Below, piece by piece: positions 10,631 to 18,279 of a stretch of 21,226 nucleotides of DNA. The translations under genes were made by a program, and so were the position numbers. The notes below the pieces were generated by a model. The model was not told the origin of the DNA. It ran no database searches and saw only the letters and a program-made list of their open reading frames with translations. The stretch comes from Candidatus Tayloriibacteriota bacterium. GTDB taxonomy: Bacteria > Patescibacteriota > Minisyncoccia > Phycocordibacterales > GWA1-40-21. The number at the start of each line of letters is the position of its first letter. The stretch's first letter is position 1. The DNA lies in assembly GCA_026395155.1 (NCBI GenBank), contig JAPLZG010000083.1, positions 1 to 21,226 on the forward strand, written 5' to 3'.

Positions 10631-11377
10631 ATGTTTGAAAAATATTTAAAAGAAATTGGATTGAGTGAAAAAGAAGCAGAAGTTTATCTAGCACTTTTAC
10701 GAGGTGACAGTTTTTCAATATTAGAAATTTCTAAAAAAACAAAAATAAATCGAACAACAATTTATCCTGTAATAAAATCTTTATCTGAAAAAGGTTTAGT
10801 TAGTGAAACAACCACAAATACAAAAGTAAATTACCAAGCTGAATCTCCAGATAGATTAGAAACTTTTATAGAGAGACAAAAGATACTTCTCGAAGAGAAT
10901 TCAAAGAAAATGAAGGATATTATTCCTCAATTAAAAAGTACTCAAAGGGAAGTGGGGGAGAGACCTGTTGTGAAATATTTTGAAGGTAAAGAGGGAATAA
11001 TAAGCGTAAATGAAGATCTCTTTAGTAATCCAGTAGAGGGGGAAAAGGCTTATATGATATATTCTAAAGATCTTGTGAATGAGGTCTTTAAAAAAGATGA
11101 AACAGCCAAATTTAAAAATAACAGAATTAAAGAAAAAATAAAAGGAATATCAATATATAATTATAAAGATAATAGTATTCCGAGTGATGAAACTTCAACA
11201 AGACTAAAAATTGATGAAAACAAATACCCCATAAATTGCGATATATCAATATACAAGGATAAAATTAGAATAGCTACGTTGAAAAAAAATCTATCAGGAA
11301 TTTATATTCAGAGTACCGATCTAGCGGAGACTATGAAAAGTTTAATTAGACTGATTCATGATTTACTAGCTAAATAA
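10631..11377 (+). CDS. TrmB-family transcriptional regulator
   Basis: 248 aa. The N-terminus LGLSEKEAEVYLALLRGDSFSILEISKKTKINRTTIYPVIKSLSEKGLVS is a typical TrmB winged-helix domain. Confidence 0.8.
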   Translation: MFEKYLKEIGLSEKEAEVYLALLRGDSFSILEISKKTKINRTTIYPVIKSLSEKGLVSETTTNTKVNYQAESPDRLETFIERQKILLEENSKKMKDIIPQLKSTQREVGERPVVKYFEGKEGIISVNEDLFSNPVEGEKAYMIYSKDLVNEVFKKDETAKFKNNRIKEKIKGISIYNYKDNSIPSDETSTRLKIDENKYPINCDISIYKDKIRIATLKKNLSGIYIQSTDLAETMKSLIRLIHDLLAK

Positions 11378-11802: not shown

Positions 11803-11830
11803 TTGACAAAAACATGATTTCATATATACT
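11803..11830 (+). promoter_or_regulatory. Sigma-70-type promoter of the hammerhead island
   Basis: TTGACA (11803-11808), a 16-nt spacer, then TATACT (11825-11830). A TGTCA-N8-TGACA inverted repeat (11791-11808) overlaps the -35 element. Confidence 0.6.
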
Positions 11831-12075: not shown

Positions 12076-12135
12076 ACTCCCCATTATCCGAGCAAACAGC
12101 TCGTTGCGACAAAATCCGGTCGCCTAAAAGCAGGT

Positions 12136-12223
12136 AAAAAGTTTTGTCACAGTTTTACTTTGAAAAAATGTGAGCCTAGAGGAAGCAGAGCCTCACCGAG
12201 ACGAAAGTTTCGGTTTCTGTCTC
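12136..12223 (+). repeat. Left copy of the 88-nt perfect direct repeat, ending 2 nt past the HHR1 cleavage site
   Basis: aaaaagttttgtcacagttttactttgaaaaaatgtgagcctagaggaagcagagcctcaccgagacgaaagtttcggtttctgtctc is identical to 14081-14168. Weaker similarity extends about 28 nt further upstream. Confidence 0.95.
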
Positions 12224-12291
12224 CGACCCAGTCGGACTGATGAGTTTTCCATTACAATCTCTAGTGAGGTTGGTGGTATGACGAAACAGAG
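12214..12291 (+). ncRNA. Hammerhead ribozyme HHR1 (type III topology, long stem II); predicted cleavage after C12221
   Basis: uuucuGUC, then stem I tccgac-cca-gtcgga, then CUGAUGA (12237-12243). A 39-nt imperfect stem II follows, then GAAA (12283-12286), then cagag pairing with uucug. Confidence 0.9.
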
Positions 12292-12318
12292 TGTTCTTTA
12301 AAATTAAAAGGAAAAAAA

Positions 12319-12519
12319 GTGAGTACAAATAAAACTTTCACAATCGGGGAATTTGTTTTTATTTTAGTGGGTGTGGTTTTTTTGTTAATTGCAATCTACT
12401 ACACCACGGTAGCTTTTATTCACAAAGAGACGCCCCCGATTCAATCCAATATCGCGGAACTAATGGGGATCTTGAATCTCTTTACAGCTTTTATATTAAG
12501 GGCTGCACTCAAAAAATAA
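12319..12519 (+). CDS. Small membrane protein, 66 aa, two predicted TM helices
   Basis: GTG start with AAAGGA 6 nt upstream. Hydrophobic segments are FVFILVGVVFLLIAIYYTTVAF and LMGILNLFTAFILRAAL. Confidence 0.6.
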   Translation: MSTNKTFTIGEFVFILVGVVFLLIAIYYTTVAFIHKETPPIQSNIAELMGILNLFTAFILRAALKK

Positions 12520-12572
12520 CGTAAAGAAATGGGTACGTTTAAACCCCATTCAACCCGGATATGATATCTGGG

Positions 12573-12655
12573 TTCTGTCCTGAGATAGGTTTTCTCAGAT
12601 GATGAGTCCAAACCTAAATCAATTTTATTGATCGACAGAGAAGGACGAAACAGAA
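12573..12655 (+). ncRNA. Hammerhead-like motif HHR2 (type III topology, variant core AUGAUGA); predicted cleavage after C12579
   Basis: uucuGUC, then stem I ctgaga-taggttt-tctcag, then AUGAUGA (A in place of C3). Stem II is gtcc...ggac with an inner atcaat/attgat hairpin. GAAA (12647-12650) follows, then cagaa pairing perfectly with uucug. Confidence 0.55.
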
Positions 12656-12730
12656 GTTCTTTGTAAAGACGTTCAGATAATCGTCTTTAAACAATCTGCG
12701 TAAAGCATGCGTTAATGCCTCGGAGAAAAC

Positions 12731-12871
12731 ATGCCACAGGGAAGGCGAGAGCTTACCTGCACTAAGTGCAAAAAGGTTTTCAAAACACATTCGTCCAATC
12801 GGACATTGTGTCACACCTGCAAGCCTAAGTGCAGAGAGCGTCACTACTTCAAAAAAGTAGCGACACTCTAG
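12731..12871 (+). CDS. Zinc-ribbon small protein, 46 aa (not in the supplied ORF track)
   Basis: MPQGRRELTCTKCKKVFKTHSSNRTLCHTCKPKCRERHYFKKVATL has paired CxxC motifs (C10/C13 and C27/C30). GGAG lies 6 nt upstream of the ATG. Confidence 0.6.
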   Translation: MPQGRRELTCTKCKKVFKTHSSNRTLCHTCKPKCRERHYFKKVATL

Positions 12872-13049
12872 CCAAGCGCAGTATCTTCCGGAAGGTCTAA
12901 GAGTCAGACCGTTTTGCGAACCGGACGAGGTGGAGAAAACCACCTTTAGAACAGAAGTAAGTAAGGGCACATAACTCTACATAATGTCCTGGAAACAAAA
13001 ATCCGTGGAGAAAACCACGTGAAAAACCCGAACATGCAATGTGTTCGGT

Positions 13050-13102
13050 TTCTGTCTCACGATATGTTTCGTGACTGATGAGTCCAGAAGGACGAAACAG
13101 AA
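13050..13102 (+). ncRNA. Hammerhead ribozyme HHR3 (minimal type III); predicted cleavage after C13056
   Basis: uucuGUC, then stem I tcacga-tatgtt-tcgtga, then CUGAUGA (13075-13081). Stem II is gtcc-agaa-ggac, followed by GAAA (13094-13097) and cagaa. Confidence 0.92.
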
Positions 13103-13153
13103 TCCCAGTAGTAGAGCAAAGCTTACTACGGGGCAAGTGTTCTTTTAAAAAAC

Positions 13154-13207
13154 GTCCTGCGTTTTAATTTGAAATTATTTTTTTAATTTTAAATTAAAAC
13201 GCAGGAC
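13154..13207. other. Long perfect AT-rich hairpin inside the non-coding unit
   Basis: gtcctgcgttttaattt pairs with aaattaaaacgcaggac (17 bp), plus inner aaatta/taattt pairing. The minus-strand reading is followed by a T-run, so it would look like a minus-strand terminator. Confidence 0.75.
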
Positions 13208-13480
13208 CCTTGCAGGGGTTTGGCTAATTGCCCTCAGGTTGGGTGCACTCTCCTGAGAACTGAGTAGATTTAAGACTCAGAGCGAAATATCTCTTTACGA
13301 AGAGTATTTCGGTAGGGGTGTTCTAAAATACCTCACACTGCACGGCATGGAGATGTCGTTAATCCAAAACTAAAGCGAAAACTCACGTCCCGCATTTTTA
13401 GGGACGTCGACTTCGCTTAATGTTTGGGATATCTCCCGAGGGTGTTGTTGGGTGTCTGAATACATCCAACAGCATCCTCG

Positions 13481-13558
13481 TCTCTGTCTCCGACCCAGTC
13501 GGACTGATGAGTTTTTCATTACAATCTCTTGCGAGGTTGGTGATAAGACGAAACAGAG
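13481..13558 (+). ncRNA. Hammerhead ribozyme HHR4 (type III, long stem II, paralogue of HHR1); predicted cleavage after C13488
   Basis: cucuGUC, then stem I tccgac-cca-gtcgga, then CUGAUGA (13504-13510). A 39-nt stem II follows, then GAAA (13550-13553), then cagag pairing perfectly with cucug. Confidence 0.9.
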
Positions 13559-13581
13559 TGTTCTTTACAAGGATTTCCAAA

Positions 13582-13794
13582 ATGAAAAAGCAGACAATTC
13601 GAGACATAGTGATAGAAAAAGCGAGTAGTCGAATTAATAATGATGAGATATCGGATTACAAAGATTTTGCGGACGCTCTCAGTAGTAACATTGGCGACAT
13701 TTTGCTTCTTCGTCCGAGAATTGCCAGCCTTTTTGAGGATATGCCGGATGGCTTTCAGAGCCCTCGTGGATTCTCTGATTGGTTGGTTCAATGA
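13582..13794 (+). CDS. Hypothetical small protein, 70 aa
   Basis: ATG preceded by AAGGA. The ORF-track N-terminus (13420-13581) runs through HHR4 and is rejected. The protein begins MKKQTIRDIVIEKASSRINNDE... Confidence 0.6.
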   Translation: MKKQTIRDIVIEKASSRINNDEISDYKDFADALSSNIGDILLLRPRIASLFEDMPDGFQSPRGFSDWLVQ

Positions 13795-13864
13795 TGTTGC
13801 TGATTAACATTCAAAATCAGACGGCCCCAACCCGATGTTGGGAAGATTTATTTCTGAGGATTTT

Positions 13865-14008
13865 ATGAGTCTAGCCGGGATTAAAACGGGATCGGGACAT
13901 ACCAAGGGACACTCCAACAAGAAAAGGTGGACAACCCATCAAATCTTGAAGGAGTCTTCCAAAAGGAAGTCTCGCATTCTCGGGCGGCTGGAATGCCGTC
14001 AGATCTGA
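13865..14008 (+). CDS. Possible basic small protein, 47 aa
   Basis: MSLAGIKTGSGHTKGHSNKKRWTTHQILKESSKRKSRILGRLECRQI, with GAGG 5 nt upstream of the ATG. Not in the ORF track. Confidence 0.35.
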   Translation: MSLAGIKTGSGHTKGHSNKKRWTTHQILKESSKRKSRILGRLECRQI

Positions 14009-14080
14009 ATTAATCAACAGACTTAAGCAACTCTTCAAAGACAATTGAAGTTTCCACAAATCCGGTGGTAGAAAAAAAGG

Positions 14081-14168
14081 AAAAAGTTTTGTCACAGTTT
14101 TACTTTGAAAAAATGTGAGCCTAGAGGAAGCAGAGCCTCACCGAGACGAAAGTTTCGGTTTCTGTCTC
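14081..14168 (+). repeat. Right copy of the 88-nt perfect direct repeat, ending 2 nt past the HHR5 cleavage site
   Basis: Identical to 12136-12223 at an offset of exactly 1945 nt. Confidence 0.95.
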
Positions 14169-14212
14169 ACGATATGTTTCGTGACTGATGAGCTCATAAG
14201 AGCGAAACAGAA
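14160..14212 (+). ncRNA. Hammerhead ribozyme HHR5 (minimal type III, paralogue of HHR3); predicted cleavage after C14166
   Basis: uucuGUC, then stem I tcacga-tatgtt-tcgtga, then CUGAUGA (14185-14191). Stem II is gctc-ataa-gagc, followed by GAAA (14204-14207) and cagaa. Confidence 0.92.
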
Positions 14213-14234
14213 AATGTTCTTTGAAAGGTATTTT

Positions 14235-14456
14235 ATGGAAAGTTATCATTTCCGAAAAATGGTTTCAACCCTTCATAAAAAAAATGGTAAGAAAGGCACA
14301 TGCCCAATGTGCACACTTCGACAAGCATTGCTTTCTGGAGAAGTCACCGAGTTTGACCTCCTAAACCTTCGTGGATTCGGAAATCAAAGCCTAAATCAAG
14401 TCTACGGTTTCATGGGTTTAGAACGTAAAGTGACCTTGACGAAAATGGTTTCGTGA
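14235..14456 (+). CDS. Small protein with a helix-hairpin-helix-like motif, 73 aa
   Basis: ATG preceded by AAAGG. LLNLRGFGNQSLNQVYGFMGL resembles the RpoA-CTD-type HhH (L-x-GFG-x-x-SL-x-x-I/V). The ORF-track N-terminus runs through HHR5 and is rejected. Confidence 0.6.
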   Translation: MESYHFRKMVSTLHKKNGKKGTCPMCTLRQALLSGEVTEFDLLNLRGFGNQSLNQVYGFMGLERKVTLTKMVS

Positions 14457-14737: not shown

Positions 14738-14765
14738 ACACCTCCAGAAATGGGGGTGTTTTTTT
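14738..14765 (+). terminator. Intrinsic terminator closing the hammerhead island
   Basis: acacctcc-agaaat-gggggtgt forms 8 bp with one G-U pair, followed by TTTTTT. Confidence 0.85.
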
Positions 14766-17259: not shown

Positions 17260-17305
17260 TTATTCGTATCCATTCGTATCATTAGTACCATTAGTATATT
17301 GGTAT
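17260..17305. repeat. Dispersed ATACGAAT-type repeat, copy 3
   Basis: ttattcgtatccattcgtatcattagtaccattagtatattggtat abuts the stop codon of the Xer-type recombinase gene. Confidence 0.8.
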
Positions 17306-18279
17306 TATGGTTTATTATGAAACTTTTTGTGGATATCTCGAAGATGTTTATCTGTAATATGTGTATAAATCTGAGTTGTAGCTATATTTGCGTGACCAAG
17401 CATCATTTGAACAGAACGAATATCTGCTCCATTTGAAAGTAAGTCTGTGGCGAAGCAATGGCGGATGACATGGGGTGTCACTTTTTTTGTAATTCCTGCA
17501 ATTGTTGCATATTTTTTTACAATTCTTTCTATTGTACGATGATCAAGACCTTTTAAAATTTCTTTACTTAAGACTCCACCCTTTTTATTTTTATTAGAAG
17601 CTTTTTTCTCATTATAAACAGGAACAAAAAGAGCATCCGACATATCTTTCCTTAAAGCTAAATATTCTTTAATAGCTTTTTTGGCTTCATCAGAAAGAAA
17701 GACCACACGCACTTTATTACCTTTTCCACGGATGGAAAATTCATCCATATTTAAATCCAAATCATTTCCAAGCGAACAAAGTTCGGCTACACGCAAACCA
17801 GTAGAGAAAAGCAATTCCAAAATTGCCTTGTCACGAGCCTTTCTTTCAGGATTTTCTTCTTTATTTGGAGCATCCATAAGACGTTTTAATTCTGCGGGGG
17901 AAATCACATCAATTGAACGTTCACCAACTTTTGCAAGCTCTATATTATCGGCTGGAAGGGAAGTAACGCCACGACGAGTAAGAAATTTAAGAAAAGTTCG
18001 CAAAGCAATCAAATAATAATTTTGAGTTTTTTTACTCATCGTACCACCAGCTGAAACTGGCTCTCCAAATAAGTGATATGCTTTTGCACCAGGTCTACGG
18101 TTGAGCCAGATACGAAATTCGCGAACTTTTTCATTGGTAATATCCTTTGGATCAGTAATTTTAGATTGACTTAAAAAAACTGTTAAATAATGGTCGTAGT
18201 TTCCAATAGTTTTCACCGCTCGTCCTTTTTCTATCTCGATATATTCGAGAAATTGAGTTTTTAGTTCGTTGATGGTCAT
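17305..18279 (-). CDS. Tyrosine recombinase, XerC/XerD family
   Basis: 324 aa with an N-terminal SAM-like domain. The C-terminus has RHCFATDLLSNGADIRSVQMMLGHANIATTQIYTH, giving the R..H-x-x-R..Y catalytic pattern. Confidence 0.9.
   Translation of the reverse strand: MTINELKTQFLEYIEIEKGRAVKTIGNYDHYLTVFLSQSKITDPKDITNEKVREFRIWLNRRPGAKAYHLFGEPVSAGGTMSKKTQNYYLIALRTFLKFLTRRGVTSLPADNIELAKVGERSIDVISPAELKRLMDAPNKEENPERKARDKAILELLFSTGLRVAELCSLGNDLDLNMDEFSIRGKGNKVRVVFLSDEAKKAIKEYLALRKDMSDALFVPVYNEKKASNKNKKGGVLSKEILKGLDHRTIERIVKKYATIAGITKKVTPHVIRHCFATDLLSNGADIRSVQMMLGHANIATTQIYTHITDKHLRDIHKKFHNKP

Follow-up and report, generated by a model that had tools for sequence, protein, structure and literature searches.

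Five type III hammerhead ribozymes in a small-gene array of a Candidatus Tayloriibacteriota genome: covarying helices, pair-preserving differences between paralogues and one core variant with A at position 3

Background

Ribozymes punctuating operons of small genes are an arrangement known since 2011. In their account of genomic context, Perreault et al. (2011; PMC3088659) described clustered hammerheads that flank genes in prophage-related DNA, and proposed that these process polycistronic RNA. Here, we describe five hammerhead ribozymes (HHR1 to HHR5) in a contig of Candidatus Tayloriibacteriota bacterium (GenBank:JAPLZG010000083.1, positions 1 to 21,226 of the forward strand; assembly GCA_026395155.1); this whole stretch of 21,226 nucleotides (nt) is called the window throughout. 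As in the clusters described in that account, same-strand hammerheads bracket one or two small variable genes. The locus differs from them, as they are described there, in that it lies on a very small chromosome, is linked to a TrmB-family gene, has no phage structural genes nearby and contains one unit that is apparently non-coding. It is thus a fairly ordinary, though well-supported, case of an arrangement that is already known.

The closest described RNA family is the type III hammerhead (Rfam RF00008, clan CL00010), with which the window elements share 1) the three-way junction with an open stem III and closed stems I and II, and 2) the CUGAUGA...GAAA core, the GUC triplet and the A15.1-U16.1 pair. 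They differ from it in that 1) the best scores, 46.1 bits in the window and 48.3 bits among relatives, lie below the cut-off of 48.5 bits, 2) stem III is unusually constant (CUGUC/GAAACAG) and one element, HHR2, has A at position 3 (A3), and 3) two classes of the subfamily carry long conserved insertions in stem II. Natural core variants treated by Perreault et al. include a U3-A8 covariation at the C3-G8 pair, A6C and U10.1-U11.1. Compared with that treatment, HHR2 is likewise a rare core deviation in a typical gene context, and the U10.1·U11.1 mismatch is shared by the clade studied here; the position 3 variant described there is compensated (U3-A8), whereas HHR2 combines A3 with an unchanged G8. 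The section of that paper on natural variants (section 8) does not report an A3 variant.

The VIPR systems (bioRxiv 10.64898/2026.04.26.720920) are a further point of comparison, since their vrRNA arrays, with 9-16 tandem YNNGG (GGY/NN) repeats, are interspersed with hammerheads. Hammerhead arrays separate short RNA units in both cases, but the units here mostly encode small proteins. A vrRNA array was considered and rejected, no run of at least four GGY/NN pentamers being present on either strand of the window (the best nine-unit stretch matched at 20 of 27 positions). No RAMP-like gene was found in a Pfam scan of 20 open reading frames (ORFs) of the window, for which no Vipr-specific model was searched.

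Our overall reading, to which we give a probability of roughly 0.6, is that the five hammerheads form an array on one transcript, that their helices are under selection and that HHR2 is probably impaired by A3.

Results and discussion

Five type III hammerheads in the window

When the window was searched with RF00008 and matches were taken by E-value, five type III hammerheads were obtained, all on the + strand, with 46.1 (HHR5), 43.3 (HHR3), 37.1 (HHR4), 28.9 (HHR1) and 25.6 bits (HHR2). Their E-values ranged from 3.5e-8 to 0.023 (0.0026 for HHR1), and in all five the Rfam alignment spanned model positions 1-54. At the Rfam gathering threshold no hammerhead was returned from the window, because all five score under 48.5 bits. 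A descriptor composed of NUH, a stem I hairpin, NUGANGA, a stem II hairpin, GAAA and stem III gave exactly five matches on the + strand of the window, the same five, with stems of 6, 3-5 and 6-7 base pairs (bp), and none on the - strand. A covariance model (R1), trained on nine compact hammerheads from related genomes with the window sequences excluded, scored 55.8, 49.2, 36.7, 27.2 and 25.7 bits in the window, again for all five and nothing else. In the whole genome (897 kb in 136 contigs), these five were the only hammerhead matches. The elements are as follows:

12214-12292, + strand: HHR1, type III hammerhead; predicted cleavage after C12221; 25.7 bits with R1
12244-12282, + strand: long stem II of HHR1, with a U·U mismatch at 10.4/11.4
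12572-12656, + strand: HHR2, type III hammerhead with core AUGAUGA; predicted cleavage after C12579; 36.7 bits with R1
13049-13103, + strand: HHR3, compact type III hammerhead with stem II GUCC/GGAC; predicted cleavage after C13056; 49.2 bits with R1
13481-13559, + strand: HHR4, paralogue of HHR1 (92% identical), repeat family D2; predicted cleavage after C13488
14159-14213, + strand: HHR5, paralogue of HHR3 (92% identical), repeat family D3; predicted cleavage after C14166; 55.8 bits with R1
within 14159-14213, + strand: stem II of HHR5, GCUC/GAGC

The conserved core (CUGAUGA, GAAA and GUC) is complete in HHR1, HHR3, HHR4 and HHR5, and HHR2 departs from it at position 3 only, with the remaining core positions as expected. 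The hammerhead fold was the minimum-free-energy (MFE) fold for HHR1, HHR3 and HHR5; its ensemble probability was 2% for HHR1 and 0.9% for HHR2 under a model that ignores tertiary contacts. The compact class of the family has a conserved loop I (UGUGU-like) and a conserved loop II (AAAA), which would be candidates for a tertiary contact. Judged by sequence and predicted fold, the five elements are genuine type III hammerheads and belong to a lineage-specific subfamily that is widespread in an order of very small, Patescibacteria-like genomes, and self-cleavage is predicted at all five sites.

Homologues and covariation of the helices

Similar hammerhead clusters were seen when related genomes were searched by DNA and with RF00008. 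Of the 53 genomes of the family, 15 had R1 matches, and at the level of the order 36 had them among the 151 sampled; 2-9 matches per genome were common, and all positive genomes were 0.4-1.4 Mb in size. Because the best score in the clade (48.3 bits) is below the gathering threshold, standard annotation misses this hammerhead sub-lineage, which is carried by roughly one in four of the genomes sampled from the order.

The sequence-only reading had taken the base changes between paralogues as a sign of selection on the helices at the RNA level, and had proposed a structure-aware alignment of homologues as a check. Such an alignment (A4) was made by aligning 125 matches (123 distinct) to the model. 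Standard pairs occupied 96.7% of its cells, as against 72.7% after shuffling and 28-47% when the pairing partners were slid by 1-3 columns; cells changed on both sides numbered 487, as against 122 in shuffles; and 14 of the 16 pairs varied on both sides. The covariation score was 0.695 (0.228 when shuffled) and was reached by none of 500 shuffles, a count that does not equal a probability since the relatives are not independent of one another. With its own structure prediction, RNAalifold arrived at the three hammerhead helices, and all 13 predicted pairs had compensatory changes. The dependence among relatives speaks against taking the covariation at face value, and so does the fitting of A4 to the model structure, which biases the pair counts and is offset in part by the slid and shuffled controls and by RNAalifold. 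Despite these reservations, the margin is very large. The proposed selection on the helices was borne out mainly by the 123 homologues and less by the two pairs of paralogues, and purifying selection on RNA pairing holds the helices in place. This confirms the five motifs as real hammerheads under selection and not look-alikes.

The long stem II of HHR1 and HHR4 was analysed in a separate alignment of this class (A6, seven sequences), in which its 16 pairs were paired in 96.4% of cells and five of them covaried. The pair in columns 38-65 was C-G six times and U-A once, the latter in HHR4. Measured against the class consensus, the U·U of HHR1 is a defect. This class was seen only in family f1, in G006 (twice), G009, G027 and G067. 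A pattern for it, TGATGAGN{6,9}TACAN{10,20}TTGNNGNNANGACGAAAC, matched both window copies but gave no match in viral contigs and none in 400 further genomes of the order.

It was also noticed that stem II opens with the U10.1·U11.1 mismatch in several copies from relatives (e.g. L178, L144, L119, L187 and L129) and with A10.1·A11.1 in three (including L149 and L179), the latter not being mentioned in the treatment of natural variants by Perreault et al.

Differences between paralogues in a mosaic locus

The base changes read from the two pairs of paralogues were found as described. Stem II is GUCC-AGAA-GGAC in HHR3 (13082-13093) and GCUC-AUAA-GAGC in HHR5 (14192-14203), which means that pairs 10.2/11.2 and 10.3/11.3 go from U-A and C-G to C-G and U-A while pairing is retained. 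HHR1 and HHR4 have six differences, namely 1) a compensatory pair in the long stem II, with C12249-G12276 corresponding to U13516-A13543, 2) a change from G·U to G-C in stem III (U12215·G12291 to C13482-G13558), 3) a mismatch turned into a pair, the U·U at 10.4/11.4 of HHR1 being U-A in HHR4, which improves the basal pairing of the latter, and 4) two bases of the apical loop (UAGU versus UUGC). No pair is broken between these two copies and the core is unaltered. When the same number of random substitutions (six) was dropped on HHR1, the probability that no pair was lost and the core was untouched was 0.0016, and that of at least one compensatory pair was 0.053. HHR3 and HHR5 have five base differences within the ribozyme, including two compensatory pairs (P = 0.0004 for at least two under random placement); their stem I is identical, and all five differences lie within the 12-nt stem-loop II.

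Among the 123 copies, GUCC/GGAC and GCUC/GAGC are the stem II alleles of 55 and 28, respectively, and no mismatched intermediate between the two was present. The stem-loops of HHR3 and HHR5 each differ from a common allele of the family by a single substitution in the loop. In addition, the locus contains mosaic repeats (D1 to D3), a signature of recombination, of which D1 has the following position:

12127-12223, + strand: 97-nt repeat in the 5' flank of HHR1, repeat family D1; copy at 14072-14168 before HHR5 with 96% identity

D1 stops 2 nt past the cleavage site of HHR1, so that HHR1 consists of the flank of HHR5 joined to an HHR4-like body. Because the two alleles are common family-wide, the differences are confined to stem-loop II and the locus is mosaic, a swap of an allele or segment appears no less likely as the source of the HHR3/HHR5 difference than compensation in place by successive steps, and the exchange probably proceeded by recombination between hammerhead modules. 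Selection on pairing still keeps the stem II alleles matched. The differences between HHR1 and HHR4, on the other hand, are pair-preserving substitutions.

One could go further and suppose that all pair-preserving differences between the paralogues arose incidentally through gene conversion or recombination involving other copies, or by chance, so that they would be no evidence of local selection. The restriction of the HHR3/HHR5 differences to a 12-nt stem-loop that equals two common family alleles, in a locus that is demonstrably mosaic, agrees with this explanation. It is nevertheless improbable as a full account, given that the stem II alleles exist in paired form only, that the HHR1/HHR4 changes are scattered with none of them pair-breaking, and that the U-A pair of HHR4 is unique in its class.

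In A4, the stem III pairs (CUGU/ACAG) were identical in 98-103 of 123 copies, and every stem I pair covaried freely. The constant stem III and the mosaic HHR1 fit module exchange at or near the cleavage site.

A at position 3 of HHR2

HHR2 belongs to a class with an extended stem II (the CCUAAA class). As had been read from the sequence, its core is AUGAUGA, while GAAA, the GUC triplet and the three stems (I, 6 bp; II, 4 bp in the basal part; III, 6 bp) are intact. Its relevant parts are as follows:

12586-12592, + strand: loop I of HHR2, UAGGUUU; perfect complement of 12610-12616
12599, + strand: core position 3 of HHR2, A (consensus C); C3-G8 pair broken
12610-12616, + strand: AAACCUA of HHR2, directly 3' of the 5' strand of basal stem II; candidate pseudoknot partner

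The statement that C3 pairs with G8 and that single mutants are weak is correct according to a mutagenesis study of a type III hammerhead (PMC9901934), in which all single mutants of C3 and G8 had low activity and only the swap to G:C rescued it. Because of these low activities, and because the natural U3-A8 change in the variants of PMC3088659 is compensated, A3 together with G8 is expected to be strongly impaired, and HHR2 most likely cleaves slowly or not at all. Its descent and fold make it a hammerhead, but one with a predicted low activity.

The homologues point in the same direction. Among the 123 distinct sequences, position 3 was C in 122 and A in one, HHR2 itself. Position 8 was G in 122 and A in one (CUGAUAA, L122, G027:C4:117981-118037), and position 9 was A in 122 and U in one (CUGAUGU, L145:2212-2268:-, G072). 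Changes at two other positions were recurrent, position 4 being U in 116 and C in seven, and position 7 being U in 112 and C in 11. On these frequencies, positions 4 and 7 look tolerant and the changes at positions 3, 8 and 9 look like sporadic hits. The unit headed by the G072 singleton, with A9 changed to U, includes a homologue of the 46-amino-acid (aa) ORF of the window. A scan for A3 hammerheads, which combined the family stem III with AUGAUGAG and covered 185,579 species with a single genome each, gave 16 matches, as against about 11 estimated from chance, and none was well folded: no match had a stem I (the longest run was 3 bp) and one had a stem II. With position 3 left free, viral contigs gave 69 C3 and four A3 matches, the latter non-canonical by eye. 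No orthologue of HHR2 was found among 61 relatives compared by DNA, in the five closest array-bearing genomes, or in metagenome contigs searched with a pattern of 25 specified bases (26 letters). The simplest history would be that a member of a birth-and-death family recently suffered a loss-of-function mutation.

An alternative register that brings back C3 is not available, since UGAUGA directly follows an A, and the next base in the 5' direction is the closing G of stem I. A complement of the 5' half of HHR2 at 12933-12956, considered as a sequestering partner, is not conserved in G072 and was estimated to be within chance.

A trivial cause would be that A12599 stems from a mistake in assembly or sequencing, or represents a minority allele in a metagenome-assembled genome whose population has C3. 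The genome is a draft (136 contigs, 88% complete) and the change is a single base; on the other hand, single-base consensus errors outside homopolymers are rare and the surrounding sequence has no other anomaly, which makes this cause very improbable.

All 7 nt of loop I of HHR2 are the Watson-Crick complement of AAACCUA, and HHR2 is the only one of the 123 copies in which loop I and stem II share a complementarity of more than 4 nt (shuffle P = 0.007, post hoc and uncorrected). In class relatives, the CCUAAA segment is part of a GCC/GGC internal helix instead. HHR2 may have swapped one architecture for a pseudoknot of the type described by Perreault et al.

U4 is usually regarded as invariant. 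The U4-to-C core (CCGAUGA) was nevertheless present in seven of the 123 copies, at six loci in five genomes: L175 and L176 (G014), L119/L135 (G062), L166 (G060), L190 (G097) and L141 (G006). Its recurrence suggests that the clade tolerates this change.

Several of these observations weigh against our overall reading. The window copies and every relative found score below the Rfam gathering threshold. The 7-nt complementarity of HHR2 looks like a maintained tertiary contact. The other core bases of HHR2 and its three stems are perfect, which, like the complementarity, argues against simple decay, and the recurrence of U4 to C means that inactivity through A3 is not assured in this scaffold.

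Two alternatives build on the same observations. According to the first, HHR2 cleaves about normally and tolerates the A3·G8 mismatch; stabilisation of the core by the loop I-stem II pseudoknot would be one way to achieve this. Tolerance of core changes does vary among hammerhead scaffolds (PMC3884650 and work cited there), the recurrent U4-to-C copies suggest that it is unusual in this clade, and a candidate pseudoknot is at hand. We consider near-normal cleavage quite doubtful all the same, in view of the lack of any active C3 or G8 single mutant in the comprehensive mutagenesis (PMC9901934) and of the frequency of A3 (one of 123 homologues, and absent from well-folded matches in the 185,579 genomes).

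According to the second, HHR2 has been attenuated on purpose, A3 being selected for partial or conditional cutting that sets the ratio of joined to separate 66-aa and 46-aa messages. The intact remaining core and stems, together with the unique complementarity, which suggests ongoing selection on folding, would suit such a role, and the slower phage hammerhead variants discussed by Perreault et al. (PMC3088659) may, according to that discussion, be regulated. Set against this, A3 is a singleton without an orthologue and so bears no sign of conservation, other invariant core positions have equally rare singletons elsewhere, as random hits predict, and no ligand-binding or switch element is evident in HHR2. 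Selected attenuation thus appears unlikely, and its fullest form, a naturally attenuated or conditional HHR2 that keeps an uncompensated A3 in a perfect scaffold with its own 7-bp pseudoknot and tunes the separation of the 66-aa and 46-aa messages, somewhat more so. If true, it would be the first natural hammerhead with position 3 as a rate dial. HHR2 is also a natural test of what an uncompensated change from C3 to A costs in a tertiary-stabilised scaffold.

Genes of the array and proposed processing

The array fits its five hammerheads into 2 kb, and small ORFs are located between them. The genes and signals of the locus are as follows:

10631-11377, + strand: gene of a TrmB-family helix-turn-helix regulator (Pfam PF01978, E = 1.4e-15), upstream of the array
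11803-11830, + strand: promoter-like site, the best upstream of the array; 11 of 12 consensus positions, a consensus match only
12319-12519, + strand: 66-aa hydrophobic ORF between HHR1 and HHR2; marginal PHROG match (E = 0.099)
12731-12871, + strand: 46-aa Cys-rich (zinc-ribbon-like) ORF between HHR2 and HHR3; weak Zn_ribbon match
13582-13794, + strand: 70-aa ORF after HHR4; homologue (56% identical) between hammerheads in G067
14235-14456, + strand: 73-aa ORF after HHR5; no family match
14738-14759, + strand: terminator-like hairpin followed by a T run, downstream of the array

The promoter-like site sits in the AT-rich spacer that follows the TrmB gene, and homologues of TrmB adjoin hammerhead arrays at more than 20 related loci. 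The cargo ORFs, of 66, 46, 70, 57 and 73 aa, have no family assignment (the 66-aa ORF has no Pfam family), and one further unit is apparently non-coding. In G072, two hammerheads flank a homologue of the 46-aa ORF with 71% identity. In general, the cargo is hypervariable, the 292 cargo ORFs compared forming few small clusters; a search for contigs encoding two of the window proteins gave no record. The GC content of the array is 42-44%, compared with about 30-38% in the surrounding windows. A tyrosine recombinase gene (17305-18279) lies 3 kb from the array, its neighbours are housekeeping genes, and no phage structural family was found among the window proteins with Pfam and PHROG.

From this layout, the five hammerheads would be carried on one transcript that runs from the promoter-like site at about 11.8 kb to the terminator-like hairpin at about 14.75 kb, each of them followed by a non-coding stretch or by one or two very small orphan genes. 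Cleavage after each GUC would split the transcript into separate RNAs, of which the upstream products would end in a hairpin and a 2',3'-cyclic phosphate and the downstream products would start with a folded ribozyme; Perreault et al. (PMC3088659) put forward this scheme for clusters in prophages. With a slow or dead HHR2, the 66-aa and 46-aa cistrons would stay joined in a single RNA, as the sequence-only reading had proposed for units 1 and 2.

Flanking module and nearby sequence features

Flanks were analysed for 117 family hammerheads (A4 loci). The 45 nt upstream had a median MFE of -12.7 kcal/mol, compared with -6.5 kcal/mol for controls (P = 1e-21), and a stable hairpin, the loop of which often ends in UAAAA, abuts the 5' side of the hammerheads. 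On the 3' side, an [AU]UCUUU box was located within 21 nt of 66 of the 117 copies (56%), compared with a background of 3%.

The region that follows the 46-aa ORF (12875-13000) is non-coding and about 90% identical to its counterpart in G072, as compared with 71% aa identity for the ORF. It contains several hairpins and resembles a degenerate 3' half of a hammerhead (CGGACGAG-hairpin-CUUUAGAACAGAAG); it had no Rfam match.

Just 3' of HHR3 there is a hairpin, CCCAGUAGUAGAGCAAAGCUUACUACGGGGCAAG (13101-13138), which is present in multiple copies with 94-97% identity in many related genomes, including genomes without hammerhead matches. In three inspected copies of relatives, it was located about 15-80 nt from a tRNA gene. 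A further sequence, GCCUAGAGGAAGCAGAGCCUC, occurs at 12174-12194 and 14119-14139, upstream of HHR1 and HHR5, respectively, and was found nearly identical upstream of a hammerhead in G171, which belongs to another family, and in G043.

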